This document shows, in pieces, positions 13,372 through 33,771 of a stretch of DNA of 54,784 nt (the first letter of the stretch is position 1; each line of letters starts with the position of its first letter). Both the position numbers and the translations under genes were made by a program. A model generated the notes under the pieces. That model worked only from the letters and a program-made list of their open reading frames with translations. It was not told the DNA's origin and ran no database searches. The stretch lies in IMG/VR virus record IMGVR_UViG_3300042197_004232, positions 1 through 54,784 of that record, one strand, 5' to 3'. The DNA comes from a virus. Its lineage: Duplodnaviria; Caudoviricetes.

Positions 13372-14530
13372 TGTTGCTTCTCCGTTACAGACTTTTCTCG
13401 ATACGATTGGCAAGGACAGCACGCCGCAAGAACAACTGTTTTTGACCGCGGGGCTTATTGAACTCCTTCGCCGCACGAAGAATCGCACGCACGTGCTGGC
13501 CATGGCGGAACTTTTGGTGGAGAGCGCCGACGAGCCGTGGCAGTCGATTCCGTTTTCGTTGACCAAAACGCTTTTGTCATCGGAATACAAATCCTTGGTG
13601 ACGGCGGCTGGTGTTTCTGCGGACCGCGTACCGCAAACGCTCTTGGTGGCGCTGCAGTTGTTTCTATGCCAAGGCGGGGAGGTTTCGGAGCCCGCTTTGC
13701 GCGAGGCTGTTGAAACCGTGTGCGAAACGATGACCGGGGCGGATACTGGCGGGCACTCCCCGGCCGCCGAGGAGCCGCCGCCAAAAAAAGATAGGGCGCC
13801 CGGCGTCGAAGTTTTCAACGCCAATCTTTTGCGCCGAGGGTTTGCGCCGCAGCCATTGACGGCTGAACTGGCTAAACAACTCGGAGTGCGGTTGGTGACG
13901 TACCGGGCGCCGTTACCGCAGGACAGGCTGAGCCCTACACTGCGGGCCATCGCTTTTCCCGCCGGCGAGGCAGCGCACGCGTTGCTGCTCGAAACCGGCG
14001 AGTATGTCATCGTCGCCAACGACGCGGCGCATCTGGAGTTCACTGAGACGCCGGCCGATTTTAAAGCCGTGTCGCCGGTGCTATTGGCCAATGTCGTGGC
14101 GGCACACGAGCGCTTGCAAGCACTCGGCCTGTTGTCCGAGCAGGCGTCAACACATATTGCCACTGGTTGCCTTGGCAAGATAACCAAGATGCATTTTCAG
14201 GGTGAGTATGACGGGCTTGAAGACCTGCAACCGTTGACGGAGGTCTTCTCAGGCTCGCGGCCGTCTGGTATGCTGCGCGGCTCTCGCACCGCCCAAAACG
14301 TTGTGTACGTTCCCGTCATGGGCACGAACATGTTTATCGGTCTCTTCGCCGCACTCGACGATACTGGCCCATATGGCACGGCGCGCATTGTGCAAGACCG
14401 CACGGACGCCGAGCCCGGCCGCGTGCTTATTCGGCACGACACGCCCCGGCAGATTACGCCGCAAGGCGTGTACTTGTTTCCTACCTCTGAGTGTTTCGTT
14501 TCTTTCACTGCTATTTTTGACACACCATGA
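13352..14530 (+). CDS. Hypothetical protein
   Basis: Long ORF, ATG 13352 after GAAGG. Confidence 0.75.
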   Translation: MTKLMFDVASPLQTFLDTIGKDSTPQEQLFLTAGLIELLRRTKNRTHVLAMAELLVESADEPWQSIPFSLTKTLLSSEYKSLVTAAGVSADRVPQTLLVALQLFLCQGGEVSEPALREAVETVCETMTGADTGGHSPAAEEPPPKKDRAPGVEVFNANLLRRGFAPQPLTAELAKQLGVRLVTYRAPLPQDRLSPTLRAIAFPAGEAAHALLLETGEYVIVANDAAHLEFTETPADFKAVSPVLLANVVAAHERLQALGLLSEQASTHIATGCLGKITKMHFQGEYDGLEDLQPLTEVFSGSRPSGMLRGSRTAQNVVYVPVMGTNMFIGLFAALDDTGPYGTARIVQDRTDAEPGRVLIRHDTPRQITPQGVYLFPTSECFVSFTAIFDTP

Positions 14531-14805
14531 CACCATCTGACTTTGCCGATTTTGATGACGACGACATGCTCGACGACATCGAGCACCAAGAGCCCCAGCC
14601 GTGGGAAGTAATGTTGAACGTCCGCGGGTTGCTGTGCACGAGGTACGGCAAGGAGCGCGGCGAAGACATCTATGGGCTGCTGTTCAGCGCCGCGCAACAC
14701 GCGGCAAACAACACACCTGTCGAAACCCAGCCGGGCATCTTGTTTACCGAAGACGGCGGGGAGTTCGTCGGGTTTGAAGCCGAAGACATGCGCGAGGAGT
14801 TTTAG
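14527..14805 (+). CDS. Hypothetical acidic protein
   Basis: ATGA overlap. Confidence 0.7.
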   Translation: MTPSDFADFDDDDMLDDIEHQEPQPWEVMLNVRGLLCTRYGKERGEDIYGLLFSAAQHAANNTPVETQPGILFTEDGGEFVGFEAEDMREEF

Positions 14806-14813
14806 ACAACATT

Positions 14814-15398
14814 ATGTACTTGTTTGTTGACACGGAAACCGGCGGCCTGACACCCGAGCACAGCCTGCTGACGGTGTCCTGCATCATCGTGGACGAGCAC
14901 TTCAACATTATCCCCGTCGCGGCCGAGGACGGGCGCCCGGGTCTGTATCTCGACATCAAGCACGACGAGTACTCACTGACGTCGGGCGCGCTTTCTGTCA
15001 ACAAAATCAATTTGGTTGAGCACGACAAACACGCTACGGCTATTCCCGAGGCCCGTTCAATGCTGCGAGCATTTTTGAATCGGGGGCTGCAAGCCATGAA
15101 CAAGAAGCGTTTCGTGCCAGCCGGGCACAACGTCGGTTTCGACGTGCGGTTTCTCCAGGCGTACTTACTGTCCCCCGAAGAGTGGGACCAGTATTTTACG
15201 TATCCCGCGTTGGATACAGCCGCCGTTGCAAGGTTCTTCAACGCGGCTGGGATTCATGCCGGCGGATATTCGCTTGGGCGCCTGCGCGACAAATTCATTC
15301 CTCATGCGTCAGGCGGAGACTTGCACAACGCCGAAATCGACAACCTGACGGCAATAGAACTGGCCAAGAAGTTCGTGTCGTTGGTGCCCAGACAATAA
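14814..15398 (+). CDS. DEDDh 3'-5' exonuclease (DnaQ-like)
   Basis: VDTETGG, GHNVGFD, HNAEID motifs. Confidence 0.9.
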   Translation: MYLFVDTETGGLTPEHSLLTVSCIIVDEHFNIIPVAAEDGRPGLYLDIKHDEYSLTSGALSVNKINLVEHDKHATAIPEARSMLRAFLNRGLQAMNKKRFVPAGHNVGFDVRFLQAYLLSPEEWDQYFTYPALDTAAVARFFNAAGIHAGGYSLGRLRDKFIPHASGGDLHNAEIDNLTAIELAKKFVSLVPRQ

Positions 15399-15407
15399 CA
15401 ATTCAGT

Positions 15408-15532
15408 GGGCAGGCTGGTGCCCGTACTTGCAAAAACCGCTGCCTTCATCGGCGGTCCAGCACCCCAGTCGGCCGTGGGTTCGTAACGCCGAAGCCGACA
15501 ACATCTAAACTAAGAAGACTCCTACTGGGTGT
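15408..15532 (+). ncRNA. Candidate structured RNA upstream of the tRNA
   Basis: Several stems and a possible pseudoknot (see findings); family unidentified. Confidence 0.3.
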
Positions 15533-15570
15533 GGGTCGGAAGTCGTCAATGCAAGGATGCAAGCGCGGAG

Positions 15571-15641
15571 TGCCCGATGGTGTAACGGTAGCACAAGGGA
15601 TTTTGGTTCCCTTTGTCTAGGTTCGAATCCTAGTCGGGCAT
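15571..15641 (+). tRNA. tRNA-Gln(TTG), CCA not encoded
   Basis: Acceptor TGCCCGA/TCGGGCA, anticodon arm AGGGA-TTTTGGT-TCCCT, T arm CTAGG-TTCGAAT-CCTAG. Confidence 0.95.
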
Positions 15642-15675
15642 TGAATTGGTTTGGTTTTTATGGGGGGAGTAAACA

Positions 15676-15906
15676 ATGGGTTATGCAAAAGATCAGTTAG
15701 ACGAAGAACAGGCGCGCGCACATGAAGAATATGTGAAAGAAAGTATTTGTCCAGAATGCGGAGAAGAGCGCGAAGAAATTACGCTAGACCACAATACGTT
15801 TTGGCTTTGCGATACGTGCGACGGCGATGACGAAAGCTACGACGATATCGGTGACGAGCCGCCGGAAGAAGAAGACGAGTTGTGGGGTTCGGCAGATTGC
15901 TTGTAG
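15676..15906 (+). CDS. Small acidic zinc-ribbon protein
   Basis: CPEC...CDTC; GGGAG RBS. Confidence 0.7.
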   Translation: MGYAKDQLDEEQARAHEEYVKESICPECGEEREEITLDHNTFWLCDTCDGDDESYDDIGDEPPEEEDELWGSADCL

Positions 15907-15969
15907 CAAAAACATTTAGGTGGTGTGTACACTAAACAGTGTATTCACCCCTAAACTCGGGAGGCACGG

Positions 15970-16338
15970 ATGCCTTACACCGATTCCGAAAAGCGCAAGG
16001 AGGCTTCTCGCCGACATTACCAAAAGCACAAAGCCAAGTATATTGCGCGGACCAAGGCGTACTCCCAAAAACATCGTGAAAAAGTTTATGAGTACAAAAA
16101 AACAACACCATGTAAAGATTGCGGGCAGCAGCATCCGCATTACGTGATGGAGTTTGATCACGTGCGCGGCAAAAAAGTTAGCAACATCGCCGACATATTG
16201 CACAGGAATCACGCGGGTGGTATTTGGAAAGAAATTGCAAAGTGCGAACTGGTGTGCGCGAATTGCCACCGGTATCGCACCTACAAACGGTTGCAGCAGA
16301 AGAAAAAAGGAGCTGCGAAGCAAACGCGCGCGAAATGA
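15970..16338 (+). CDS. HNH endonuclease
   Basis: CKDCG...EFDHVRGKK...KCELVCANCHRYRT. Confidence 0.85.
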   Translation: MPYTDSEKRKEASRRHYQKHKAKYIARTKAYSQKHREKVYEYKKTTPCKDCGQQHPHYVMEFDHVRGKKVSNIADILHRNHAGGIWKEIAKCELVCANCHRYRTYKRLQQKKKGAAKQTRAK

Positions 16339-16598
16339 ACACAGAACCTTTTGCCTACGGCATACAGGCGCCTATCGGCAGCGTCACGCCGCTGTTTCAC
16401 AAACGCAACGACGCCGAAGACTATATTGCCAAATTAACCGACAGCCGTGCCGCGGCGAAGATTATTCCGCTGTATCGGGCACCAACGCTCACCGACGCGG
16501 AGCGGGAGGCGGTGGCGACGGCCGCAGCATCCTGCGAGGGGATTGGATTTGATCAACTGCCCGCCGCGCTTCGCGGGCTGCTGGAGCGACTGAAGTGA
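16335..16598 (+). CDS. Hypothetical, LTDAEREAV...LRGLLERLK family
   Basis: ATGA overlap; stop abuts attC-like site 1. Confidence 0.75.
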   Translation: MNTEPFAYGIQAPIGSVTPLFHKRNDAEDYIAKLTDSRAAAKIIPLYRAPTLTDAEREAVATAAASCEGIGFDQLPAALRGLLERLK

Positions 16599-16599
16599 A

Positions 16600-16689
16600 A
16601 CAGAACGCCAAAGATCAACAGCCGCGAACGAAGGAGGCGGCCAACATGAACGACGAGAATGAGCGGTCTGTTGCATCGGCTGGTTCTGT
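16600..16689 (+). mobile_element. attC-like site 1
   Basis: ACAGAAC...ATCAACAGCCGC [loop with AAGGAGG and ATG] GCGG-T-CTGTTG-C-AT...GTTCTGT; two extrahelical bases. Confidence 0.8.
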
Positions 16690-16942
16690 GGCTGGCGAGC
16701 CTGTGGCGTGGGCCGTCTTGGATTCACGCGGCACAGTTTGCGTTGCATACACATGCCGCGAGGCAGCGGAGGCGTACTGTGAGGCAACTTTCAATAGGCT
16801 GGCACCGCTGTACCGCCAGCCGCAAAACGGAGTGGTGCGGTTGCCGCCACTTGACCCGAACGGCGCGCCGGGCTGGAACGCTGCCATTGGTGCCGTGCGA
16901 GAGGCGTTGGCTGATGCTGGAGTCGATTGGGATACTGAGTAG
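16646..16942 (+). CDS. Cassette protein 1 (EPVAW...PLYRQP), start inside attC1
   Basis: AAGGAGG RBS; stop abuts attC2. Confidence 0.75.
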   Translation: MNDENERSVASAGSVAGEPVAWAVLDSRGTVCVAYTCREAAEAYCEATFNRLAPLYRQPQNGVVRLPPLDPNGAPGWNAAIGAVREALADAGVDWDTE

Positions 16943-16944
16943 CC

Positions 16945-17067
16945 ACAGAACACGCGAGATCAGCGGCGGCGACGACGGCGGACGTGGAGCGCAGAAAGGA
17001 CTCTGGATTATGAGCAAAGCATTGAACGTAAAACGGGGCGCGGATTCGCAGCAGCGCCGGGTTATGC
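16945..17067 (+). mobile_element. attC-like site 2 (inner arms degenerate)
   Basis: ACAGAAC...ATCAGCGGCGGC...TTCGCAGCAG...GTTATGC; left end complements start of cassette 1. Confidence 0.65.
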
Positions 17068-17264
17068 CAACGGTCGAAGAACTCAACCGTAACTTCGCAA
17101 CGGCTTTCGAAATCCGACTACATGAAGAATACCTGCGCGGAAAGATGGACGGGCTGCGAATCGCAAAACTCATACGCGGCCGGCTCACGCGACAGCCTGA
17201 CCGGGCGTGGCAGAAGCAAGTCCGTGAATGGGCGGACAAGGCAATTGCAAATGCAGAGCGCTAG
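17010..17264 (+). CDS. Cassette protein 2, start inside attC2 (alternative ATG at 17064)
   Basis: AAAGGA RBS; stop abuts attC3. Confidence 0.7.
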   Translation: MSKALNVKRGADSQQRRVMPTVEELNRNFATAFEIRLHEEYLRGKMDGLRIAKLIRGRLTRQPDRAWQKQVREWADKAIANAER

Positions 17265-17267
17265 TTG

Positions 17268-17356
17268 GCATAACGCGCAGGATCAGCGGCGGCGACGAAA
17301 GGACGAACTATGACGAACGACAACGAGGAGCCGTCCGCTGCATCCGCTGGTCCTGT
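17268..17356 (+). mobile_element. attC-like site 3 (R' reads GTC)
   Basis: GCATAAC...GATCAGCGGCGGC [loop with AAAGGA and ATG] GCCG-T-CCGCTG-C-ATC...GTCCTGT. Confidence 0.8.
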
Positions 17357-17633
17357 GGCAGAGCGGCCACTGGGCGACCCCGAGATCGCGGTGGAGATTC
17401 TGCGGCTGCGAGTCGCGGAACTGGAGGAGGCTATCCGCCGACTCGCGGAGGAGGACGCCACGCTGTCGCTCCTGTGCAAGCGTGACGGCAGCCAAGTGGT
17501 GACGGTGACGATGGACGCCCCGCTCACTGACGCGGAGAGGGAGGCGGTGGCGTGGGCGGAATACGCTGCCGAGAAATGGTGCGAGCACACCGCTGCAGCC
17601 ACGCTTCGCGGCCTGCTGGAGCGACTCAAATGA
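17310..17633 (+). CDS. Cassette-like protein 3, LTDAEREAV...LRGLLERLK family
   Basis: Start within attC3; C-terminus paralogous to 16335-16598. Confidence 0.75.
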   Translation: MTNDNEEPSAASAGPVAERPLGDPEIAVEILRLRVAELEEAIRRLAEEDATLSLLCKRDGSQVVTVTMDAPLTDAEREAVAWAEYAAEKWCEHTAAATLRGLLERLK

Positions 17634-17815
17634 CAACTCTCGACGACGGCGAAGACCCGTTTATTCCAGCGCCAAGAATTCCGAGCAATAGACAGAAAAG
17701 CCGGACGGCTAAACTCGGTTTATTTTGGTGCTACAAGTGCGACAAAAACAAAGTCGGGCAGGTCGGGAAATGCTCGGTTTGCGGACACAGAGAAAACAGG
17801 AAGAAAACAAAGTGA
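17630..17815 (+). CDS. Small zinc-finger protein
   Basis: ATGA overlap; WCYKCD...KCSVCG. Confidence 0.65.
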   Translation: MTTLDDGEDPFIPAPRIPSNRQKSRTAKLGLFWCYKCDKNKVGQVGKCSVCGHRENRKKTK

Positions 17816-17817
17816 TT

Positions 17818-18129
17818 ATGAACGCGACAATAACAGATGACGCCACTATTCCTGACGCCCGGCACCTGATCTGGGTCGCTAGAAATTTACTGTGGCAAGC
17901 CCACGCCGGGTTTATTGAAATGACAAGCCAGCGGCCCGAGCAGGTTGGGGCCAGTGTGGTGTGCGACGAATTGCAAAAACTCACCGAGTCAATCGATCAA
18001 ATGCGTGAGCAGTTGAAGCGCTATGACAAAGTGCCGTGTCAAAATACCACGATGCCCCCGTGCACAGAAAACGCGTGGCAGCATTTCTTAGAGCATGTAC
18101 AGACGTGTTATTTACCTCATCAAAAATAG
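17818..18129 (+). CDS. Hypothetical protein
   Basis: Tiling ORF. Confidence 0.6.
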   Translation: MNATITDDATIPDARHLIWVARNLLWQAHAGFIEMTSQRPEQVGASVVCDELQKLTESIDQMREQLKRYDKVPCQNTTMPPCTENAWQHFLEHVQTCYLPHQK

Positions 18130-18171
18130 GGCAAATCAAAATGCCGGGCGCTTATTTAAAGAGGAGAGGAA

Positions 18172-18351
18172 ATGGCCGACAACACGACTGCGCAACAAGC
18201 GGTCGAGTTTACGTTTCATAACGCTAATGAAGAGATGACGCCAGACGAGTTGAATCGGATGATCGCGGAGACTATCTGGATGGCAGACCGCCCGCGAACA
18301 TGGTGGGAATGGTGGAGTTGGCAGTGGCGGTCGTTGTGGGGCAGGAATTGA
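18172..18351 (+). CDS. 59-aa protein with Trp-rich C-terminus (below ORF-track cutoff)
   Basis: GAGGAGAGGA RBS; MADNTTAQ...TWWEWWSWQWRSLWGRN. Confidence 0.65.
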   Translation: MADNTTAQQAVEFTFHNANEEMTPDELNRMIAETIWMADRPRTWWEWWSWQWRSLWGRN

Positions 18352-18358
18352 GGGGACA

Positions 18359-18571
18359 ATGCCAAGAGTCACGTTAACTTTCGACCTACCCGACGAACGC
18401 GGCAGCATGCAGGCGGCGCTGGCTGGCCAAGACGCCCTGCTCGCGCTGTGGGATATTGACAACAAATGCCGCGGGTTGCTCAAGCACGGCAACCTGCCCG
18501 AAGAAACCGATCAACTTATCGAAGAAATCCGGCGGCTGGTCCCGATGGAACTGTTAGACCTGCTTGAGTAA
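18359..18571 (+). CDS. Conserved phage hypothetical
   Basis: MPRVTLTFDLPDE...ALWDIDNKCRGLLKHG. Confidence 0.75.
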   Translation: MPRVTLTFDLPDERGSMQAALAGQDALLALWDIDNKCRGLLKHGNLPEETDQLIEEIRRLVPMELLDLLE

Positions 18572-18575
18572 TGCT

Positions 18576-18794
18576 ATGGACATCGTAAAACGACTGACGC
18601 TTGCCGCCGCTGAGGACCCGCGCTCAAAGTTGGCACAAGTGGCGCTAGACGCTATAGCCCACATCGAATCGTTGCGGACAGAGATTCGCACGCAGCGCAA
18701 CGAGATCGCGCAACACATCAGCGTGCGTAATGCGGTATTGGATATGGATCGACCACCAGAAATGAACCCTCACGGAATAGAAGATTTAAAATGA
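18576..18794 (+). CDS. Hypothetical coiled-coil protein
   Basis: MDIVKRL...AIAHIESLR. Confidence 0.65.
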   Translation: MDIVKRLTLAAAEDPRSKLAQVALDAIAHIESLRTEIRTQRNEIAQHISVRNAVLDMDRPPEMNPHGIEDLK

Positions 18795-19126
18795 CATTTG
18801 CACCTGTAACGTTCGACGAACTTGAAAACCTTGTGGCCGAGTGGGCCGAAGCCCGCAGGATTATTCCAAACAGCAACCCTATGGCGCAGTTGCTAAAAAC
18901 TATGTCCGAACTAGGCGAACTAGCGGACGCGACGCTCAAAGACGATCGTGATGGTATCGTCGACGGAATTGGCGACGTGTTGGTGACGTTGATTTTATAT
19001 TGTCGTCTTGCCGGCGTGCATCCAATTGATTGTTTGCGCGGCGCATACGGTATGATCAAAGACCGCAAGGGCACACTGACGCCCGACGGTATCTTTGTGA
19101 AAGAAGAAGATTTAACGGACGCCTGA
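18791..19126 (+). CDS. MazG-like nucleotide pyrophosphohydrolase
   Basis: KTMSELGELA, DGIGDVLVTL, AYGMIKDRKG. Confidence 0.85.
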   Translation: MTFAPVTFDELENLVAEWAEARRIIPNSNPMAQLLKTMSELGELADATLKDDRDGIVDGIGDVLVTLILYCRLAGVHPIDCLRGAYGMIKDRKGTLTPDGIFVKEEDLTDA

Positions 19127-19201
19127 GGCGCAATACGGTCGTCAAACTGTAAGAAATGTGATACGCTACGCGAATCCTCGCAAACACGCGGCAACGCAAT
19201 T

Positions 19202-19840
19202 ATGGTGGATTTCGCGGGCATGTCGGCGATCGAGCGGCAGTTTGTGCGTATGTACGTACATTCTTTGCGGCGGAACTACGCGCTTTTTCGTTCAGTAACC
19301 GACTTAATGAATCCGGCTGGGTTGGGCGTCAGAAACGTCGTAGACGCGACGCGTTTGGCGGACGGACTGGCAGACTTGCACGACGAGTTCGAGACCCGCC
19401 TGCGAAGAATCCAGAAAAAAATAGGCGTGAAACCAAAAATTGTCGGCGGCGCCGAGCCGACGTTGGACGACTTAGCCGACGTGTTCTCACTGTCTTTCTT
19501 CAAAGTCGTGACGACGCTGGAGTCGGACACCGGCGCGAAAGAAGTGGATAACAACGGCTGGTTTAGCGGCAAACCAGCAGAGTGGAAAAAGTCGTTTTTG
19601 GCGTTTCAGGCCGCGGCCAAAAACAACCCGGCGGTGCCGCTGCCGCAAGTGCTGTCTGAAATTTTTTCGGCCGCCTTAAAGTTGTTTCATATATACGACA
19701 AAAAGTGGTCAGATAACCCGTCGGCGCCGCCGAAGACGTGGCCGCCGATTGCCGCGGGCGACGACGACACCTACGCCGACGACGAAGATGAGACGTCGTC
19801 TGAGGGGCCGTGGGACTGGTTTTTTGACGACGAGTCATAG
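19202..19840 (+). CDS. Hypothetical protein
   Basis: Long ORF with acidic tail. Confidence 0.7.
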   Translation: MVDFAGMSAIERQFVRMYVHSLRRNYALFRSVTDLMNPAGLGVRNVVDATRLADGLADLHDEFETRLRRIQKKIGVKPKIVGGAEPTLDDLADVFSLSFFKVVTTLESDTGAKEVDNNGWFSGKPAEWKKSFLAFQAAAKNNPAVPLPQVLSEIFSAALKLFHIYDKKWSDNPSAPPKTWPPIAAGDDDTYADDEDETSSEGPWDWFFDDES

Positions 19841-21025: not shown

Positions 21026-23123
21026 GTTCACGCGCGGGCTGGTGGCCATCTTGGGCGAAAACGGCTCCGGCAAGAGCAGTCTGTTTGGCGCCATTCGCTG
21101 GTTACTGACCGGCGAGAACCCCAATTACGGCGTCAAAGCCGACAATATTTCGCAATACGCCAAAGAAGGCGAACCGTCGAACGCCACACTGGAGTTCGAA
21201 CACAACGGCCACGTAGCGCTCGTGACGCGGCATCTGCTGCCAGAAAAAGAGCAGGCGACGCTGATCGTTGACGGCAAAGAAGTAGCCCGCGGCGACAAAG
21301 CCGTGACGGCCGGTGTGGAAAAACTATTGGGCGTCGATGCCAAGTTTATTTCTCGGTTTATCATCGTGGCGCAGACCGAGATTTTCTCGTTCATCGATGA
21401 CAGTCAGACCGAGACCGACAAATTTTTTCAGCGGTTGTTCAACACGTCTGCGGCCAACAAGTGTCAGGATGTGATTGGTAAAGCGCTGCTCAAGACGACG
21501 ATTCCCGAGATCGTCAAGTCGAGCAATCAGTTGCTGCAGGAACAAGCGCAGATTACCGAGCAGATTGACGAACTGGACGCGCAAATTTCTACGCTGCCGA
21601 CGTTGGACGCGTTTTTACAGACGCAGCAAACCGATCAGGCCACGTTGCAATCGTGGGCTCAGCGCGAAAAAGCCGGCGTCGAATTGTATGCGCTGCAGCA
21701 GCAGGCGGCGGACTACGAGAAGAAGATCGCCGCCGACAACGCCGTAATTTTGCAGTATGACGAAGATTTAAAAGCGTTCACGGAAGCGATTGCCGGCAAG
21801 GAAGAAGCCCACCGTGCGGCCAAGATCGCGCTGGGGCACTGGGAGAATTACAAAAATATTGCGCGCATGCGGGAGAAGTTTCAAGGCCAGCGCGACGACA
21901 TCGCGACGGCTCAAGCAGCCAACCCGGAGCCGCCGTTACCGGGCGAGCCCTCTGCCGAGCAGTTGCGCAGTGAAATTGCGGCGCTCAAGCGAGAGGTCGC
22001 CGAGGCGCAGCGGTTTGTGGACATGTTCTCAGAAAGCGGCGTTGCCGAGTGTCCTACGTGTCATACGCCGTCGGGACAACTTGCCGAGCAGGTGTCGGCG
22101 AAACAGTCGGCTATCGCGGTGTATCGAGAACTGATTGCGACCAAGCAGACGTTGGCGGATGAACAGGCCGCGGCGGAAACCGCGCATCACCGGTGGCAGG
22201 TTGAAAACGAAAAACTGCTGGCCAAAATAAAGCACTTAGATGACGCGGAGCACGATCTGACCGCCGTTAAACCGCCAGAGACGACTGAAGAGGAGTTGCA
22301 ACAGGCCGTGTCTGATTTTGAAGACTTCGAGGCTGCGCAGAACGAGTTGCAGCCGCTTGTGCAGTCAGCCCGCGATCAGGCGGCCAAAACGAGCGGTCAA
22401 CTTGCCGCCGTGCGCGACCGCATCGCCCGGTTGACCGACGAGATTAAAGACATCAAAACGACGCAGGCTGATGCGGCATTAGCGACAGCGCGCCTTGACG
22501 CCATGCGCACACGATGCGCGCAGCGGCAACTTTTGGAGCAGCAGCGGGCGCAACTGATGTTCGACCGGCAGCGACTGCAAGAACAAAGCGAGATTGCGCA
22601 GGCGCAAGAAACCGCCGCAGTGAAATTGCGGTCATGGACGGCGGTCGCCGAGCAGGCTCGCGACGCGCTTAAAAATGCGCCGCGGATTGTCGCGCAGCGA
22701 AACCTGCAGCGTCTGGAAACAGCCGTGAACGAATTGTTGCAGATTTTTCGTGTAAATTTCACAGTCAAGGTGGCCAACGATGGATCGCCGACATTTATTG
22801 CCGAGTTTTACGACGGCCGACGACAGCCAGCGCAGCGCCTGTCTATCGGTCAAAAGACAGTCTTGGCTCTTGCGTTTCGAGTTGCCGTCAACGCCATGTT
22901 CGCCGAAGAGATTGGGTTGTTGGCGTTGGATGAGCCGACTGCATCATTGGACCAACCGCGCATTCAGGCTTTGGCTCCGGTACTTGAAAAACTGAGAGAC
23001 CTCTCGACCGCGAAGGGACTACAATGTCTGCTTGTAACCCACGCGTCGAGTCTCTCACATCTTTTTGAGTCTACAATTGAATTAGAGCCGCCGGAGTTGC
23101 GCAATGTTCGGAACGCAGGATGA
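20967..23123 (+). CDS. sbcC: SbcC/Rad50-like SMC ATPase
   Basis: GENGSGKS Walker A, CPTC zinc hook, LSIGQK signature, LLALDEPT Walker B, VTH. Confidence 0.92.
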   Translation: MQLLKLEVKNWVHHRQRTCEFTRGLVAILGENGSGKSSLFGAIRWLLTGENPNYGVKADNISQYAKEGEPSNATLEFEHNGHVALVTRHLLPEKEQATLIVDGKEVARGDKAVTAGVEKLLGVDAKFISRFIIVAQTEIFSFIDDSQTETDKFFQRLFNTSAANKCQDVIGKALLKTTIPEIVKSSNQLLQEQAQITEQIDELDAQISTLPTLDAFLQTQQTDQATLQSWAQREKAGVELYALQQQAADYEKKIAADNAVILQYDEDLKAFTEAIAGKEEAHRAAKIALGHWENYKNIARMREKFQGQRDDIATAQAANPEPPLPGEPSAEQLRSEIAALKREVAEAQRFVDMFSESGVAECPTCHTPSGQLAEQVSAKQSAIAVYRELIATKQTLADEQAAAETAHHRWQVENEKLLAKIKHLDDAEHDLTAVKPPETTEEELQQAVSDFEDFEAAQNELQPLVQSARDQAAKTSGQLAAVRDRIARLTDEIKDIKTTQADAALATARLDAMRTRCAQRQLLEQQRAQLMFDRQRLQEQSEIAQAQETAAVKLRSWTAVAEQARDALKNAPRIVAQRNLQRLETAVNELLQIFRVNFTVKVANDGSPTFIAEFYDGRRQPAQRLSIGQKTVLALAFRVAVNAMFAEEIGLLALDEPTASLDQPRIQALAPVLEKLRDLSTAKGLQCLLVTHASSLSHLFESTIELEPPELRNVRNAG

Positions 23124-24051
23124 GACGGTTATTAAACTTCACACTGCCGCGAACGGGCACGTGTGGTACAGCCGTGGAATTGGCCCCACGAAAAACTCGC
23201 AGCAAATCGTCGACAGTTTTTTGCTGTCGCCGTTTATCGCGGGAGTTGGGCTGACGTTTCGCATATTAGGCCTGCCACAGAACGCTGAACTGATTTGTTC
23301 AATGTACGAGCGGCGGTACAAGGGAGAAGTGCGGTCTGTGGAGATCGCCGGCCCAAACGTATTGCATAGTCCGGACGAGTTACAGGACCCGGCGCTGACC
23401 GTATCGCGCATGCGGAGCGTGGCGTCATCGCCAGCCTGCGGCGGCTGGCACGAACTGACGATGAAAGACTATCCGACGTACGCCATGCTGTCGCGGATGA
23501 CACGGAATAACTTTGTTTTTGATGACACCGCCAATTCGTACTTTCATCTCCATCCCGCGTATCGGGCGCTGTCGTTTATCCCCACGATGCAGGCGGCCCA
23601 GGCGGCGCGCATGTTGATTTCGATCGTCGACCCGCGCTGGTATGTGGAGCGCCGGCGACCCGACAGGGCTAAAAAACTGGAACTGTACATGGGCCTGACG
23701 CCGACAGTGCAGCGCCGCGTATCGGACTCGGAGGTATTGCTGACAAAATCACGCGATCTGCGCTGCAATTCTGTGCTGTGCAGTTGGCAGGGCGAAACGC
23801 CCGAAGACGTGGACCTCAAAAATCCGGCCAATTTTTTGTATCGGATTTACGCCGCAGCGGGCGGCGGGTATCGTGGCGACCTGCGGGCGTCGCAGGCGTT
23901 TTTGCGCTACGTAAACAGCAACTGGTTGTCCGCACTGGAATCGCGCAAAGGCGCCAAGGACGGGTTGTTTGCGCCTAACCTGTTTTTTAAATCGCCGGCC
24001 GAGGTTGAGGCGTATACTCGGCACATGCAAAAACCGCCGGAAGGGCACTAG
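23104..24051 (+). CDS. Hypothetical with IS110 C-terminal/Nop-like segment
   Basis: ALSFIPTM...AARMLISIVDPRWY...KKLELYMGLTP resembles the Transposase_20 pattern; family call tentative. Confidence 0.5.
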   Translation: MFGTQDETVIKLHTAANGHVWYSRGIGPTKNSQQIVDSFLLSPFIAGVGLTFRILGLPQNAELICSMYERRYKGEVRSVEIAGPNVLHSPDELQDPALTVSRMRSVASSPACGGWHELTMKDYPTYAMLSRMTRNNFVFDDTANSYFHLHPAYRALSFIPTMQAAQAARMLISIVDPRWYVERRRPDRAKKLELYMGLTPTVQRRVSDSEVLLTKSRDLRCNSVLCSWQGETPEDVDLKNPANFLYRIYAAAGGGYRGDLRASQAFLRYVNSNWLSALESRKGAKDGLFAPNLFFKSPAEVEAYTRHMQKPPEGH

Positions 24052-24059
24052 GTCGGGTC

Positions 24060-24557
24060 ATGCAAGAGATCACGGTGACGGTGCGCTTTAATCGCGTGTG
24101 TCTCGGTGCGGCCAAGCGCCGGCGTAACGGTCAAATCGTTTTCTGTTTCGACCGCGACCCCGGACAGCGTGTCATGTTTATGCCTGCGGCGTGGCTGGCC
24201 GGCATGCGGTATGCGGCCAAGTTGGCCAATCGGCACCACAGTGCCGTCAAGAAAATCGACTGGTGTCCGGTGATTATGGGCGAGCCGCGGACCGATTGGC
24301 GCCGCAACATCGTCACGCACAACGCCGAGACCGGCGCAGCCCGGACGCATTATGCGCTGCACGAGGCGTTTCGCCCCGGCGACACAATTGTCGTATCGGT
24401 CGTGCTACCCGACGAGATACCGATTGCCGATTTCAATTACCTGCTGTCGCTGGTCGGCAAATATCGCGGCTTCTCTCCGTTCAACAACAATCAAGAAAAA
24501 TATGGGACATTTGAAGTCATATCAATCGAACCGGTCGCCGGTCCCGGGACAGACTAG
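24060..24557 (+). CDS. RAMP/Cas7-like small protein
   Basis: N-terminal strand ending CLG, HEAFRPGDTI, C-terminal GKYRGFSPF...YGTFEV loop; family call tentative. Confidence 0.5.
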   Translation: MQEITVTVRFNRVCLGAAKRRRNGQIVFCFDRDPGQRVMFMPAAWLAGMRYAAKLANRHHSAVKKIDWCPVIMGEPRTDWRRNIVTHNAETGAARTHYALHEAFRPGDTIVVSVVLPDEIPIADFNYLLSLVGKYRGFSPFNNNQEKYGTFEVISIEPVAGPGTD

Positions 24558-24558
24558 C

Positions 24559-27111
24559 ATGAGTTTTGCTGGCTACCCGGTCGTGATTCAGAAAACAGCC
24601 AATGTGCTCAAGATTACGGGCGCTGGCGGAACAGCCCTCAACCCTGATCTGATCAAGCATCTGACCAAGGGGCTGCATTACTCGCACGTCGAGCAGTTGC
24701 ACGGGCAGTCCCGCAAGAATCCAGTGACGGGGCAGCGGCTGTATTTTCAGACGCGCGAGTTCAAACTGTTTCGCGTCGAGAACGGCCACGTCGTCTTGTT
24801 GGCGGGTTACATGGCGCGGATGATCAACCGGCTGCGGAAACTGGGATGTAATTTTACGCTGGTGGATTCGACGCCTTCCCGCAAGCGAGAACAGTGCTAT
24901 ACGCCGCGCTGGGAAAATTTAGAAGGCAAAATCGAGTTTCGTCCGCGGCAGGAAGAATGCCTTCGGTTGCTTTCGCGAGTCCCGTGCGGGATTATCAAGG
25001 CCGTGACCGGGTTCGGGAAAGCCCAACCGATTACCGAAACGGTTTATACCGATATCGGGCCTATTCCAATTGGCGGCATTCAGGTCGGCGATTACGTTAT
25101 CGGTTCAAACGGTTATCCGACTGAAGTAACCGGCGTATATCCGCAAGGTGTCAAAGATATCGTTGAAGTCGAATTTTCTGACCGCACAAAAGTCAGGTGC
25201 TGCAAAGAACATTTGTGGAATGTTCGCACAAAAGCCCAAAAGCATCGAGACAAACCGTATCGCACTGTGCAGATTGCCGATATCGCAGACGACTTGTACG
25301 ACAATCAGGGTAACGCAAAATGGTTTGTGCCTGTTGTTGAACCTGTGCATTTCCGGCAACGAGTATTGCCGGTCGATCCGTATTTGCTCGGCGTATTGCT
25401 TGGCGACGGCGGTTTAACGCAGACGAGCATTCGATTCAGTTCTGCGGATCGAGAAATAGTCGATCGTGTGGACAGTCTTGTGCAACCGTTCGGCCTCTCC
25501 GTGCGCTATATTGCGCAGTATGACTGGGGCATAACGCACGGCATGAAAAATTTGGAAAATTCGCTTAAAAGGGCGCTGAATAAACTTGGTGTATGTGTCC
25601 TGTCGAAGGACAAAAAAATTCCAGACTGCTACAAGCATTCAAGTTATGAGCAGCGGTTAGAACTATTGCGCGGTTTAATGGACACAGACGGCACCATACG
25701 TAAAAATTGTTACCACGTTGAATTTGGTGCCGTAGCGTCCAAGCAGTTGGCCGAAGACGTCTGCGATCTTGTTCGCTCCTTGGGCGGCGTAACTCGCGTT
25801 AAAGAACAAACGTATACAGCGCAACCCGGCAAGACGTATTATCGCGTTGCCGTTAACTTGCCTGTAAATCCTTTTTGGTTGCCCAGAAAAGCCGATTTGT
25901 GGCGAAGCAAAACCAAACAAGGCAAAACAAAAGCGATTACGGCTGTACGCGCTGTCGGCCAAGAATCGTGCGTATGTATTTCCGTATCTGCGGAGGACGG
26001 GTTATATGTGACCAAAGATTACACAGTCACGCATAACACAACCCTCATCGGCGCGGCGTCACAATTGTTTCCTGACGCGCGCATCGACGTGGTTACCAAG
26101 AGCGTCGACGTGGCCGAGCGCATCGTGCGAAGTCTGCGGCGGTTTGTGCCGAAAGTCGGCATGATCGGCGACGGCTGGAAACAGCGTGAACGCGTCACGG
26201 TTATCACAGCGGGCAGTCTGCAGCACGCCGACGGCGAGGCTGACTTTATGTTTGCCGACGAAGTGCACCAACTGGCCACGATCAACTTTTCGACCGCGCT
26301 TGCCGCGCGGTACCGCAACTCTCGAAACTTTGGCCTGAGCGCCACGCCATACGCGCGCATGGACAATGCGCACGCCATTCTGGAGCCGCTTTTTGGCCCG
26401 ATGATTTTTGATCTGCCGTATCAGGAGGCTGTGGAACTTGGGCTGGTTGTACCTGTTCGTGTGAAGTGGCTGCCGATTCGTTTGCAGCACAATCCAGCCG
26501 AGCGGTATCGCAACAGAGTCGCACGAAAAAAACACGGCATCTGGACAAACTATGGTCGCAACAGTATGATCGCCGCCGCCGTGCGGGAGTATCCGGCAGA
26601 TCGCCAGATACTCATTCTCGTCGAGACGATCGAGCACGCCGTGCATCTGGGCTCGCTGCTGCCAGAGTTCACGCTCATGTACTCCAATATGATGCCGTCG
26701 GATTGCGCGGCGTATAAGCGGGCAAAGTTATTGCCGCAGGATTACACCCCGCTAACCAGTTTGCAGAAGCACGACATGCGGTCGGCGTTTGAAACCGGCA
26801 CGTTGCGCCGCGTCATCGCCACCGACGTGTGGGCGACCGGCGTAGACTTTGAACAGTTGAACGTCTTGGTTCGCGCCGATGACCGCGACAGCGATATCGT
26901 GGACGTACAGGGCCCCGGGCGTGTGAGTCGAACGTATACGGCACCTGACGGCACAGTAAAAGAATTTGGCGAAGTGATTGATTGCATGGACACATTTGAC
27001 CCGACGTTTTATCGCAAAAGCACGGGTCGGCGAGACAGTTACAAACTTCTCGGATGGGAGCAAAATTGGAATGAGGCTGCAAGAAGTTGGCGGTCTAGCG
27101 GAAGTCAATGA
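24559..27111 (+). CDS. SF2 helicase (UvsW/XPB-like) with intein
   Basis: RPRQEE Q motif, TGFGK|T Walker A, DEVH, SAT, TGVD, QGPGRVSR. Confidence 0.9.
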   Translation: MSFAGYPVVIQKTANVLKITGAGGTALNPDLIKHLTKGLHYSHVEQLHGQSRKNPVTGQRLYFQTREFKLFRVENGHVVLLAGYMARMINRLRKLGCNFTLVDSTPSRKREQCYTPRWENLEGKIEFRPRQEECLRLLSRVPCGIIKAVTGFGKAQPITETVYTDIGPIPIGGIQVGDYVIGSNGYPTEVTGVYPQGVKDIVEVEFSDRTKVRCCKEHLWNVRTKAQKHRDKPYRTVQIADIADDLYDNQGNAKWFVPVVEPVHFRQRVLPVDPYLLGVLLGDGGLTQTSIRFSSADREIVDRVDSLVQPFGLSVRYIAQYDWGITHGMKNLENSLKRALNKLGVCVLSKDKKIPDCYKHSSYEQRLELLRGLMDTDGTIRKNCYHVEFGAVASKQLAEDVCDLVRSLGGVTRVKEQTYTAQPGKTYYRVAVNLPVNPFWLPRKADLWRSKTKQGKTKAITAVRAVGQESCVCISVSAEDGLYVTKDYTVTHNTTLIGAASQLFPDARIDVVTKSVDVAERIVRSLRRFVPKVGMIGDGWKQRERVTVITAGSLQHADGEADFMFADEVHQLATINFSTALAARYRNSRNFGLSATPYARMDNAHAILEPLFGPMIFDLPYQEAVELGLVVPVRVKWLPIRLQHNPAERYRNRVARKKHGIWTNYGRNSMIAAAVREYPADRQILILVETIEHAVHLGSLLPEFTLMYSNMMPSDCAAYKRAKLLPQDYTPLTSLQKHDMRSAFETGTLRRVIATDVWATGVDFEQLNVLVRADDRDSDIVDVQGPGRVSRTYTAPDGTVKEFGEVIDCMDTFDPTFYRKSTGRRDSYKLLGWEQNWNEAARSWRSSGSQ
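25021..26037 (+). mobile_element. Class 3-type intein with LAGLIDADG homing endonuclease (339 aa)
   Basis: Begins AQPITETV, ends VTHN before Thr; LGVLLGDG and LRGLMDTDG motifs; lower GC. Confidence 0.9.
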
Positions 27112-29539: not shown

Positions 29540-30622
29540 ATGGCAATGGCCACTCCGTCCATGCCAAGTATCAATCCGTTAAACCCAACGCTGTATGCGC
29601 TGCTCGAACACAAATTTGGTGAGGTGCGTGTTGCGAACGCCGGATCGCCGGCGCAGATTCGTCGCTTTCGCGACCCTACCCGCCCCGGCCGCGTAATCAC
29701 GCAGGCCGACAGTTGGGGCGAGTATTACTGCGTATGCTGCCCGTTTTGCAATGACGTTGGCAACAAGTTGTGGATCAACCACACCTACGGCGCCGACTAT
29801 GACGACAAAACGGGGCGACGTTCCGACACGTATCTCGCCTGCTGCTATAAAAATTCTTGCCTGCAAAAACCGGGTATGTTTGAGCAATTAGAGAATTTAA
29901 TTTTTGGTCCCGGGCGTCCGGTAATTAAACGCACGGCTATTCGCGTCGTTGACGCCGATCCCGCCGCGACGGTATTGCACCTGCCCGGCACGATTGTCCC
30001 GATTGACGAGATGCCGCACACGCATCGCGCCGTCGAGTACGTCATTGGTCGTGGATTTGATCCGCACGAATTGGCGGCCGTGTTTAATGTCGGTGTCTGC
30101 ACCGAGGCCACGCCGCGGTATCGGATTATGACCGGGCGGATTTTTATTCCGTCGTACTTCAACAAGAAGCTGGTCGCATGGCAAGGGCGCATGACCCGGG
30201 ACGCCGACAAGGGCGAGATCAAGTACTACACGCAAGGCAGCAAAAGCCGGGCGTTATACAACTACGACGTCGCCGCGGCGCAGCCGTTCGCCGTGTTGGT
30301 TGAGGGTGCGCCGAGCGTGTGGCGGCTTGGTTCGATTGGCGTGTGTCTATTCGGCAAAACCCTTTCGCACTGGCAGGCTAATACGGTCGGGACAACGTGG
30401 GCTGGAAAGCCGGTCTTCGTCATGCTAGATTGCGACGCCCGCCGGGAAATGGACGCCGCTGTGGTTCAGTTATCGCAACATAATCTGGCCGTGATTCCCG
30501 TTTTGTTGCCAGACCAGCGCGATCCGGCCGACTACTCTCGGGCCGACCTTCGCGCCATTCTTGAAGCCTCCGCAGCGCATGCGGGCGTGGCTGTTGATTT
30601 GACCTCTTTAGGTGGACAATGA
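29540..30622 (+). CDS. DNA primase
   Basis: CPFC zinc domain, RIFIP...WQGR, KYY, VLVEG and LDCDA TOPRIM motifs, DPAD. Confidence 0.88.
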   Translation: MAMATPSMPSINPLNPTLYALLEHKFGEVRVANAGSPAQIRRFRDPTRPGRVITQADSWGEYYCVCCPFCNDVGNKLWINHTYGADYDDKTGRRSDTYLACCYKNSCLQKPGMFEQLENLIFGPGRPVIKRTAIRVVDADPAATVLHLPGTIVPIDEMPHTHRAVEYVIGRGFDPHELAAVFNVGVCTEATPRYRIMTGRIFIPSYFNKKLVAWQGRMTRDADKGEIKYYTQGSKSRALYNYDVAAAQPFAVLVEGAPSVWRLGSIGVCLFGKTLSHWQANTVGTTWAGKPVFVMLDCDARREMDAAVVQLSQHNLAVIPVLLPDQRDPADYSRADLRAILEASAAHAGVAVDLTSLGGQ

Positions 30623-33600: not shown

Positions 33601-33771
33601 AAGTGCATGGTGGAGGATGTGCCGTTCTATCCGCGTAGGCTGGACGGCACGCTCATCAACGCAGGCCCTTATCACTTCGGCTCGTCCAGAGAGGTGTTCG
33701 TCCACTGGGGCGAAACCTTGAAGCCAAAGGAAGCCGCCGCCCTCGGGCTGCATTTTTTGGCTGAAGAATAG
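30619..33771 (+). CDS. polA: Family A DNA polymerase with N-terminal UDG-like domain and 3'-5' exonuclease
   Basis: AIDCEW exo I, TGRASS...PPLQN, DLTGAEL motif A, RIAAKNVNFGIPYG motif B, QIHDA motif C; UDG-like EIRLVQPDYILCLG and MHPAY. Confidence 0.93.
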   Translation: MIPAVSLAHLLVRAIYDEDSAKLAAELYPMVPMDAVGMPPAGANFIAHAIDLGDDPDLATMRKNRKVLPVGEKLTGIYRAALYSPDYSMPIRLKSGIETVQFLPGHVRRNLYRSEPVYGPKPARVMVVAKIPGYKEMENGDALAGPGMAPFHAALDACGFDRDDWETWYFTFACKFSSPTPDTAAVPAAWIKDCAPLLAQEIRLVQPDYILCLGNEATKAVLNTNANVTDLAGRATTLPTYDAAGNSREVQVMSIMHPAYVARKPEFSEDFFGQMSRFKEMLENRESAAEEVDHADIYTEEALIEMVDEMLADTDPNANIIAIDCEWHGDYPTEDGAYLRTVQVSNRDKWARTIVLRHQGGEVAFKPGLDAVRQQLLRLLKSTPERHVRVGGHFFRADLPWLIHFGVDIRPEYAPAADMHDRTHGGWDTSLMYHAVNECAKYGLDVCAMRFTNAPTYWDELNRWIKKHRADNKLKAGEVGGYGECPPHVLHPYGAYDVDVTRRIMMHFYGTDGADGFLANDNQGHDCWQPYWTAHSASLAFLEMELTGLVVDRQRADELTTLFMNTQDRLLGEIREELRWPEFNPKSQPQLAVALFGRNYLARYTNAPNIPENVVLLDLEPVKTTGKRPVLWTELRWRGVNESAAVPSTDKESLGILGRKNPTAAKIRDYKFISQVLQSVLRKPNTDDEGEFEVDDNGNFAYEKGLVGCAHSDGRVRTHFFQTKETGRASSSRPPLQNLSSRRENDYARILGDQHQHPVRSILRVPEGYVGIETDLTGAELAVLAWLSQDQNFIEHVRRNLLPESHPDHYDIHSQQAIKTFNITDVEPTKKGLEKSGKKGLRIAAKNVNFGIPYGRGAEALARQCKEEGVEVSADECHAMIDAYFESYPGTKTFLAECRARSQNPGWIVGPYGRYRRFVPSNDKAVRGEQERQAQNFPIQGGVADAVSIALSNFYRYREEHSDIDYKILLQIHDAVVLLVPIEHAERVYKEVIPKCMVEDVPFYPRRLDGTLINAGPYHFGSSREVFVHWGETLKPKEAAALGLHFLAEE

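Follow-up and report, generated by a model that had tools for sequence, protein, structure and literature searches.

Probable integron-type gene cassettes in mirror-image orientation in a lake-water phage

The DNA analysed here, referred to as the window, is the complete 54,784-bp record of a lake-water phage (IMG/VR IMGVR_UViG_3300042197_004232). Between positions 15970 and 17633, an HNH endonuclease gene is followed by four small genes, A to D, and three repeats that resemble the folded attC recombination sites of integrons precede or enclose the starts of genes B, C and D. The features are the following:

15970-16338, + strand: HNH endonuclease gene (phrog_3106, 4.4e-22), directly upstream of A with an ATGA overlap. 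HNH genes are cassettes with starts inside the attC in related arrays.
16335-16598, + strand: gene A (87 aa), a cassette-type gene without its own attC core. It shares a PVAW..PLYR module with B and the LTDAEREAV..LRGLLERLK tail with D (89% nt identity), and its start overlaps an orphan R-arm-like CACAGAAC at 16340-16347.
16600-16689, + strand: attC site 1, intact, long form. 5' R arm ACAGAAC 16600-16606 (predicted cleavage between A16605 and C16606); spacer 16607-16612; 5' L arm GAT-CAACAG-CCGC 16613-16625; loop 16626-16662 with AGGAGG 16632-16637 and ATG 16646; 3' L arm GCGG-T-CTGTTG-C-ATC 16663-16677 (bulges T16667 and C16674); spacer 16678-16682; 3' R arm GTTCTGT 16683-16689.
16646-16942, + strand: ORF B (98 aa), starting in the loop of site 1. 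Codons 6-14 (ERSVASAGS) are the 3' L arm, spacer and R arm. The predicted cassette B is 16606-16950. No Pfam or PHROG family was found.
16941-17071, + strand: attC site 2, decayed. The 5' R arm AGCCACAGAAC 16941-16951, spacer 16952-16957 and 5' L arm 16958-16970 are intact, the 3' L arm is not recognisable, and the 3' R arm is GTTATGCCAAC 17061-17071.
17010-17264, + strand: ORF C (84 aa), starting inside the expanded loop of site 2. The predicted cassette C is 16951-17273, and its ends GTTATGCC / GGCATAAC match those flanking a C homologue in L035 (L numbers label loci and G numbers phage records in our comparison).
17264-17356, + strand: attC site 3, long form. 5' R arm GTTGGCATAAC 17264-17274; spacer 17275-17280; 5' L arm GAT-CAGCGG-CGGC 17281-17293; loop with ATG 17310; 3' L arm GCCG-T-CCGCTG-C-ATC 17330-17344 (bulges T17334 and C17341); spacer 17345-17349; 3' R arm GTCCTGT 17350-17356 (GTC, not GTT).
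17310-17633, + strand: ORF D (107 aa), starting in the loop of site 3. Cassette D begins at 17274, and no matching terminal R arm was found downstream.

The sequence observations of the original prediction, namely attC-like sites with AAC/GTT cores, complementary cassette ends, and start codons within the sites, are confirmed. Stop codons of A (TGA 16596-16598), B (TAG 16940-16942) and C (TAG 17262-17264) abut or overlap the 5' R arms. The two 11-bp end complements are exact and pair GTTCTGTGGCT 16683-16693 with AGCCACAGAAC 16941-16951 and GTTATGCCAAC 17061-17071 with GTTGGCATAAC 17264-17274. In 1000 doublet-preserving shuffles of 16600-17356, 81 contained at least one perfect 11-mer inverted pair and 22 at least two, which is modest on its own, while the family-wide test described below is decisive. 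Sites 1 and 3 score 110.1 and 92.2 bits with a covariance model (R1), although both were among the 12 phage sequences from which R1 was built. Site 2 scores only 14.3 bits (E 0.65). Its 5' R arm, spacer and 5' L arm are 87% identical to site 3, but the 3' L arm no longer pairs. A MAFFT alignment of site 2 with the L035 homologue did not align the 3' arms, and our reading of this arm as a mutated L arm is by eye only.

The geometry of sites 1 and 3 agrees with the published rules for attC sites (Nivina 2016, PMC5027507). AAC is invariant in 12 of 12 aligned elements, and the three innermost R pairs are Watson–Crick in 112-113 of 116 unique rows. Within the window, sites 1 and 2 carry AAC/GTT and site 3 carries AAC/GTC. 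Spacers are 6 and 5 nt in sites 1 and 3, within the unpaired 5-6 nt expected, and are not complementary in most copies. The L stem of 13 bp has two bulged bases on the arm opposite the AAC, separated by the 6 bp CTGTTG or CCGCTG; this does not hold for site 2. The first bulged base is C, whereas it is reported to be usually G. Short forms of the element are 57-64 nt, long forms are 95-101 nt and site 2 is 131 nt, which lies in the reported range of 57-141 bp. In 12 of 12 aligned elements all 13 L-stem pairs form, with compensatory changes at 3 positions, and 0 of 500 shuffles reach the covariation score. In the 116 unique rows the L stem is almost fully Watson–Crick, with up to 4 pair types per position. 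In contrast, DNA fold energies of the single sites are not distinctive, with z-scores of −1.3, +0.96 and −0.6 on the + strand, and the case rests on covariation rather than on folding energy. A search of 15400-18400 against Rfam matched only the tRNA, and megablast of 14500-19500 against the GenBank phage collection gave no match.

The same element is found in arrays of related IMG/VR phages. R1 gave 230 matches over 68 sources, and all matches within a locus are co-oriented and spaced about 300-400 bp, with up to 15 per locus. Across 116 unique cassettes, the 3' R arm of one site matches the reverse complement of the 5' R arm of the next site at positions 4-8 in 93, 96, 91, 87 and 73%, compared to 67, 75, 41, 30 and 41% for its own 5' arm. 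The mean is 5.59 of 9 matches to the next site, against 3.6 to the own site and 3.53 with shuffled partners (maximum 3.83 in 200 shuffles). This pairing with the next site is the integron cassette signature. In the phages, 107 of 129 unique long-form sites have an in-loop ATG that opens an ORF of at least 40 aa through the R arm, while short forms have no RBS or ATG. Of 10 such proteins, 8 have Pfam families (N6_N4 MTase in two, C5 MTase in two of which one is below cut-off, MT-A70, HNH in two, and DUF551), and in the two with full-length domain matches the domain starts at residue 18-19. A comparison of the longest open frames on the two strands in 119 cassette intervals was uninformative (mean 100 against 88 codons; the + strand was longer in 59).

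R1 also gave 208 matches in 80 genome loci, mostly in Planctomycetota MAGs. Integron integrases above the TIGR02249 cut-off (425-465 bits; cut-off 265) were found in 3 of 5 genomes checked, and each one lies beside such an array. The cassette genes there (PemK, ParE, DUF4160, DUF2442, DUF6883) lie on the opposite strand, and the bacterial arrays are canonical, with the gene on the top strand and the attC downstream of it. For the phage, no tyrosine recombinase was found in the window (PF00589, 0 matches), and none of the 10 phage records checked holds an IntI-type enzyme. No attI-like ends of phage arrays were found. The array is therefore not a complete integron but a CALIN, as had been proposed. 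A Y1 (IS200/IS605-type) transposase was found in 0 of 5 records, and the window ORFs 23104-24048 and 24060-24554, considered as IS110-like and RAMP-like candidates, matched no Pfam family.

The boundaries of the mobile unit were examined through shared cassettes. Among 11 pairs of cassette bodies at least 85% identical in different arrays, only the upstream core was shared in 5 and only the downstream core in 0. The shared sequence ends at the AAC of the downstream site in 7 of 7 pairs shown, and it begins at the AAC of the upstream site in 3 of 7. In the remaining 6 of the 11 pairs the cores differ on both sides, and in one pair (L025/L061) both neighbouring bodies are shared while the core between them differs. 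Cores therefore also change by some route that single AA|C crossovers do not explain, such as gene conversion or homologous exchange between conserved arms. Two relatives that share the backbone genes hold different genes at this locus. At 85% nt identity or more only a few cassettes are shared between arrays, and we see the same cassette in different neighbourhoods but no clean permutation of cassette order. In Logan contigs of four freshwater runs, depth at the attC sites is 10-100 times that of the flanks, and contigs carry the same arms around a 1-3-nt loop, which fits an abundant repeat family with short forms. These joints come from short unitigs of mixed communities and cannot be read as excision events, and no contig spans the stretch. 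A search of sequencing runs listed no RNA run that contains this sequence.

We conclude with good confidence that the region is a short, partly decayed array of integron gene cassettes carried by a phage without an integron integrase. The repeats are attC sites of the family found in the chromosomal integrons of Planctomycetota (Pirellulales, Planctomycetaceae), the probable host group. By homology with integrons, the + strand of each site would fold as single-stranded DNA into an R box, an unpaired spacer, an L box with two extrahelical bases and a variable loop, and cassettes would then be excised as circles and reinserted. The mobile unit in this view is C + spacer + L stem and loop + GTTNNNNN + gene body + NNNNNAA, so that the attC sits at the head of its own gene. 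The phage genes are written on the strand that is the bottom strand in bacterial integrons; their ribosome site and ATG lie in the variable loop, and about 14 N-terminal codons (..E[RP]S.AS.GS) are the 3' L arm, spacer and R arm read in one fixed frame. Our data show the structure, the covariation, the end-pairing logic, the orientation, the coding strand and the occurrence of the same cassettes in different contexts, whereas the enzyme, its recombination of the folded strand, and the notion that recombination still occurs are inferred. No recombination event was observed. The orientation argument rests on homology with arrays in MAG contigs. In the window, site 1 is intact, site 3 has one change in the GTT, and site 2 is probably dead.

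The interpretation given in the original prediction is thus only partly supported. Integron-type attC sites bounding gene cassettes in a phage, the lack of an integrase, translation signals and an N-terminus inside the attC, and differing gene content in relatives are all supported, and the suggested integrase from the host is plausible because the same attC family lies next to intI in Planctomycetota MAGs. The statement that no such arrangement is described in phages is half right: phage CALINs are published (Qi et al. 2023, PMC9892861), while our literature searches found no description of attC-embedded starts or of the translated, mirror-image layout, although the supplementary tables of that paper may list orientations or sites that bear on this point. 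The claim that each attC belongs to the upstream cassette and feeds the next one, with a crossover at G|TT of the right arm and a need for phase compatibility, is not supported, as discussed below.

Among the alternatives, recombination of attC-type sites by a phage-borne Xer-like tyrosine recombinase rather than by host IntI is unlikely. One family of 288-337-aa tyrosine recombinases occurs in 5 of 10 phage records that hold these sites, including 3 of 4 records at least 99% complete, and XerC/D are the only other Y-recombinases known to use folded single strands (Nivina 2016). However, the family is absent from the window, from the complete 204-kb record G002, and from G003, G012 and G013, and it never lies within the array loci. 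It matches the general phage integrase family phrog_1, scores far below the Xer and IntI cut-offs (best 52.6 bits against a cut-off of 220) and aligns with IntI only around the catalytic boxes. G004 has the gene but only 2 sites.

Slightly less likely still, the hairpins could act mainly as RNA or as regulatory modules for translation control or processing, like the PeSL promoter/stem-loop cassettes of T4-type phages (PMC2839356, PMC4122927), with genes shuffled between conserved repeats by the phage's own homologous recombination (RecA-like, SbcCD) without a site-specific recombinase. The RBS and ATG do sit in the loop on the mRNA-sense strand, cores are exchanged independently of both flanks in some pairs, G-T pairs outnumber A-C pairs 16 to 4 in the L stem on the sense strand, and the window encodes RecA-like and SbcCD-like proteins. 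In contrast, homologous exchange does not create R arms that pair with the next site rather than their own, and the same family lies next to intI in bacteria, where the genes are on the other strand, so it is not an mRNA element there. No sigma-70-like promoter, terminator or T-tailed hairpin falls in the three sites, with the caveat that the promoters of this phage and host are unknown, and short forms lack an RBS and ATG.

Also unlikely is the layout as originally proposed, in which each attC would donate RBS, ATG and leader to whichever cassette lands behind it. End complementarity fits this model as well as ours. Leader type is not tied to the downstream protein family, as the B homologue in L006 has the type-2 leader and the D homologue in L002 the type-1 leader, and the frame through GGT TCT is constant. 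Three lines of evidence nevertheless put the crossover at the AAC arm of the coding strand. The bulges lie on the arm opposite the AAC of the + strand, which marks this strand as the bottom-strand analogue (Nivina 2016), the R1 + direction points toward intI in 3 of 3 bacterial arrays, and the shared cassettes break as described above, with the upstream core and not the downstream core travelling with the body. Each attC therefore heads its own, inverted cassette. Finally, that the repeats are only duplicated 5' ends of tandem paralogous genes with inverted 11-mers arising by chance, as the modules shared by A, B and D and the 22 of 1000 shuffles might suggest, is refuted by the unrelated proteins that follow the element (MTases of three families, HNH, DUF551), the compensatory stem changes and the end-pairing in 116 cassettes.

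Beyond that, it is possible, though tentative, that phages of Planctomycetota keep their own pool of mirror-image cassettes, in which the attC bottom strand is the sense strand and encodes the RBS, the start codon and a stereotyped N-terminal peptide. Small accessory genes (orphan DNA methyltransferases, HNH nucleases, many unknowns) would then be exchanged among unrelated phages by the host's integron integrase during infection, and such cassettes would be antisense, and so silent, if captured by the host integron.

Integrons are viewed as bacterial devices, and phage mosaicism is usually put down to homologous or illegitimate recombination. Here a site-specific cassette system appears to organise the accessory early genes of many uncultured phages, which gives a concrete, testable mechanism for how phages gain and reorder anti-restriction methyltransferases and other small genes. 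The inverted, translated layout also shows that an attC can serve at once as a recombination site, a translation-initiation region and coding sequence, which constrains both the site and the protein N-terminus. It raises the question of how strand choice and expression are coupled, and it links phage gene flow to the integrase of a little-studied host phylum.

The closest known systems are the attC sites and cassette arrays of sedentary chromosomal integrons, here those beside IntI in the Planctomycetota MAG loci L119, L110 and L105. They share the geometry of R box, spacer, L box and bulges, in some cases with identical L arms (for example GATCAGCGGCTCG..CGAGTCCGCTGCATCGCGTGGTT), and form co-oriented arrays with one small gene per unit and complementary cassette ends. 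In bacteria the genes lie on the other strand, the attC follows the gene and the loop is non-coding, whereas in the phages the genes lie on the bottom-strand analogue, most long loops hold an RBS and ATG, and no intI or attI lies beside the arrays. The CALINs and integrons in phage genomes of Qi, Rajabal, Ghaly, Tetu and Gillings (2023, Front Microbiol, PMC9892861) are likewise clusters of attC sites without an integrase in virulent and temperate phages, with DNA methyltransferases among the cassettes, and IntI1 was shown to recombine 5 of 6 phage attCs. That work reports 17 CALINs, each with at least two attC sites, and describes cassettes of two phages as oriented in the usual way; its section 3.4 does not describe genes starting inside attC or systematically inverted cassettes. 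Similar to our elements, the PeSLs of T4-type phages (Arbiol et al. 2010, PMC2839356; Comeau et al. 2014, PMC4122927) are conserved structured intergenic repeats that flank small accessory genes in hyperplastic early regions and are linked to modular shuffling. PeSLs are reported to be promoter/terminator motifs thought to act through homologous exchange, whereas here no promoter or terminator motif was found within the three sites and the ends obey site-specific circular-cassette logic.

The window is a complete IMG/VR record of 54,784 bp, which is rated 27% complete by CheckV, and all clear genes lie on the + strand. They form a phage replication and recombination module encoding SbcCD-like proteins, a helicase with a LAGLIDADG insert, a DnaB-like protein, PolA fused to UDG, a RecA-like protein, a MazG-like protein and an exonuclease. 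In the helicase-like ORF (24352-27111), where the ResIII and Helicase_C matches are both weak, the LAGLIDADG domain is inserted at residues 433-499 and looks like an intein or homing endonuclease insertion. The family A DNA polymerase and its N-terminal uracil-DNA glycosylase superfamily domain share one ORF of 1050 aa (30619-33771). Two ORFs at 23104-24557, for which IS110-like and RAMP-like annotations had been considered, have no Pfam family at E <= 0.001, and six 36-nt tandem units encoding a collagen-like Gly-X-Y repeat lie at the end of the record (54506-54781). Between the exonuclease and MazG lie a tRNA gene, an HNH gene and four small genes (A to D), and none of these four has a Pfam or PHROG family:

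15570-15642, + strand, tRNA-Gln (anticodon TTG), found by ARAGORN and Rfam, which explains a depth peak in the metagenome contigs aligned to the region
16335-16598, + strand, gene A
16646-16942, + strand, gene B
17010-17264, + strand, gene C
17310-17633, + strand, gene D

The observation underlying the original prediction is confirmed, with exact coordinates: the two perfect 11-mer inverted pairs, the stop codons at the left arms and the three ATGs are all present. Within the window, the intergenic repeat occurs only at these three places.

Protein searches with B and D brought in related IMG/VR loci, in which the same stretch of about 97 nt precedes unrelated genes. It runs from ..AGAAC just after the previous stop codon to GGTTCT, and similarity ends immediately after that. 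Three sequence types differ by compensatory changes, namely CAACAG/CTGTTG with CCGC/GCGG, CAGCGG/CCGCTG with CGGC/GCCG, and CAACGG/CCGTTG with CGGCC/GGCCG. In an alignment of 12 sequences, all 13 L-stem pairs form in every sequence, three pairs show double changes, and 0 of 500 shuffles reach the covariation score. A covariance model built from this element (R1) found 230 matches over the window and 67 loci, several of which duplicate one contig. Within each locus all matches are co-oriented and spaced about 300-400 bp, with 15 in locus L016, 10 each in loci L030 and L049, and three or more in 28 sources. A short form (57-64 nt) with a tiny loop and a long form (95-101 nt) coexist. In 116 unique aligned rows the L stem stays Watson-Crick through up to four pair types per position.

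The element has the anatomy of an attC site. According to Nivina et al. 2016 (PMC5027507), the extrahelical bases of attC lie on the arm opposite the AAC triplet, the first and last extrahelical bases are separated by a 6-bp stem, the unpaired spacer is 5-6 nt per arm, and sites are 57-141 bp long with a variable terminal structure. Read on the + strand, sites 1 and 3 of the window fulfil every one of these points, the only departure being that the first bulged base is C and not the usual G. Counted from the outer end of the 7-nt R arm, the bulges fall at positions 16 and 23, the numbers that the paper also uses for attC-aadA7, provided that the numbering conventions correspond.

In an integron array, the part of an R arm beyond the crossover belongs to the neighbouring cassette and therefore pairs with the R arm at the other end of that cassette. 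We tested this on 116 unique cassettes using 164 elements of at least 25 bits, of which five lacked an AAC anchor and four lacked a GTT anchor. The 3' R arm of site i matches the reverse complement of the 5' arm of site i+1 in 93, 96, 91, 87 and 73% at positions 4-8, with a mean of 5.59 matches of 9. Compared with its own 5' arm, the corresponding values are 67, 75, 41, 30 and 41%, with a mean of 3.6, and with shuffled partners the mean is 3.53 (maximum 3.83 in 200 shuffles). Variant arms such as GTTAT/ATAAC, GTTAG/CTAAC and GTTCG/CGAAC follow the rule, and the two 11-mers of the window are instances of it.

To look for a bacterial counterpart, one genome per species was scanned with a two-arm pattern, which returned 112 stretches, mostly in Planctomycetota MAGs (Pirellulales, Planctomycetaceae, Kuenenia) and some in Betaproteobacteria. 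Of these, 80 were retrieved as loci, and R1 matched 208 places in them, again in arrays. In Betaproteobacteria MAG contigs (loci L076, L087, L114, L116 and L133), arrays of roughly 86-113-nt elements also match R1 at 28-61 bits, and these are presumably chromosomal integron attCs of another lineage. Of five Planctomycetota genomes, three encode an integron integrase above the TIGR02249 cut-off (425-465 bits against a cut-off of 265), and each lies beside an R1 array (loci L119, L110 and L105). In all three, the R1 + direction reads toward intI. In L119, the cassette genes with Pfam families (PemK, ParE, ParE-like, DUF4160, DUF2442, DUF6883) and intI lie on the opposite strand, each attC follows its gene, and the loops hold no RBS or ATG. 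Some L arms are identical between bacterial and phage sites. The phage sites therefore belong to the attC family of Planctomycetota chromosomal integrons, which points to this phylum as the probable host group, and the phage coding strand corresponds to the bacterial bottom strand.

Three independent lines place the predicted crossover in the AAC arm of the + strand: the arm that carries the bulges, the direction toward intI, and the breakpoints of shared cassettes. Among 174 unique cassettes from viral and metagenome loci, 11 pairs have bodies at least 85% identical in different arrays. Only the upstream core is shared in 5 pairs, only the downstream core in 0, and neither in 6, while an earlier, looser set gave the upstream core as more similar in 10 of 11 pairs. 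At the nucleotide level, the shared stretch ends at the AAC of the downstream site in 7 of 7 pairs inspected, and it begins at the AAC of the upstream site in 3 pairs and inside the 3' L arm in 3. In one pair, both neighbouring bodies are shared while the core between them differs. The mobile unit is therefore core + gene + distal R arm, and each attC heads its own gene. The cases in which both cores differ show that cores, and above all their loops, also turn over by another route, for which gene conversion or homologous exchange between the conserved arms is the likely one. The phage encodes RecA-like and SbcCD-like proteins. The interpretation given in the original prediction is partly supported: the integron reading is supported, whereas the cassette boundary, by which each attC would supply RBS, start codon and N-terminus to the next cassette, had to be corrected.

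Of 129 unique long-form phage sites, 107 have an ATG in the loop, preceded by a Shine-Dalgarno-like run. This ATG opens an ORF of at least 40 aa through the 3' L arm, spacer and R arm, always in the same frame (GCA TCS .. GGT TCT), which gives leaders such as MSDENERSVASAGS, MTNDNEEPSAASAGS and ..EPSLASAGS. The other 22 long forms have bacterial-type non-coding loops. After the 26 short forms, a downstream start codon, in some cases preceded by an RBS-like run, was found within about 40 nt in 25 and at 95 nt in one. Of ten leader-bearing proteins scanned, eight have Pfam families: N6_N4 MTase twice, C5 MTase twice (one below cut-off), MT-A70, HNH twice and DUF551. In the C5 and MT-A70 enzymes, the domain model begins at residue 18-19, directly after the leader, with no other start codon available. 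The coding strand and the in-site start are therefore real. In locus L250 (around 2060-2200), the in-loop leader ORF of a long-form attC ends in an ATGA overlap with the start codon of a cassette gene that has its own RBS, and the same cassette follows a short-form attC in L016. This looks like translational coupling, which may operate through a leader peptide.

The array in the window is partly decayed. Site 1 is intact, and site 3 has GTC for GTT in the arm predicted to remain uncleaved. Site 2 has lost its 3' L arm (14.3 bits) but still shows the R arms GTTATGCC/GGCATAAC, which also flank a C homologue with an intact site in the related locus L035. For cassette D, no distal R arm could be recognised. 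Gene A has no core of its own. At 16335-16348 the HNH stop overlaps the start of A (ATGA), and an orphan R-arm-like CACAGAAC follows at once with no hairpin behind it, which looks like a cassette junction that lost its attC core. A and D (16486-16598 and 17521-17633) share a C-terminal module (LTDAEREAV..LRGLLERLK) at 89% nt identity, and A and B share a PVAW..PLYR module. Both modules recur in many cassette proteins of related arrays, which suggests domain-level mosaicism inside cassettes. Two relatives share the backbone, L019 (g13214, g14527, exonuclease, MazG and g19202 homologues) and L005 (g13214, g14527, MazG, g19202 and sbcD homologues). They hold different genes, and a different order, between those markers, so that the fixed gene order in relatives that had been named beforehand as grounds for refutation is not observed.

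No integron integrase is found in the window or in any of the 10 phage records examined. A conserved family of small Xer-like tyrosine recombinases of 288-337 aa (at 1171-2037 in L071, and in L070, L192, L193 and L194) occurs in 5 of these 10 array-bearing records, including genomes with direct terminal repeats, but never within the array loci. It matches the general phage integrase family phrog_1 and scores far below the Xer and IntI cut-offs, and it may serve either lysogeny or site recombination. Host IntI is the simplest candidate. While site anatomy, the pairing of cassette ends and the in-site starts are read directly from the sequences, the enzyme, and with it IntI-dependent recombination of these sites, is inferred.

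Among known systems, the PeSLs of T4-type phages are a functional analogue, but no promoter or terminator motif lies in the sites described here. Full-text literature searches, which did not extend to supplements, found no description of inverted cassettes whose genes start inside the attC. Integrons and 17 CALINs in phages have been reported by Qi et al. 2023 (PMC9892861), who showed that IntI1 recombines 5 of 6 phage attCs and noted methyltransferase cassettes. Integron-type cassettes in phages are already known, and the variant described here is the inverted cassette with a gene that starts inside its attC. The window holds a small, partly decayed example of a widespread phage system.
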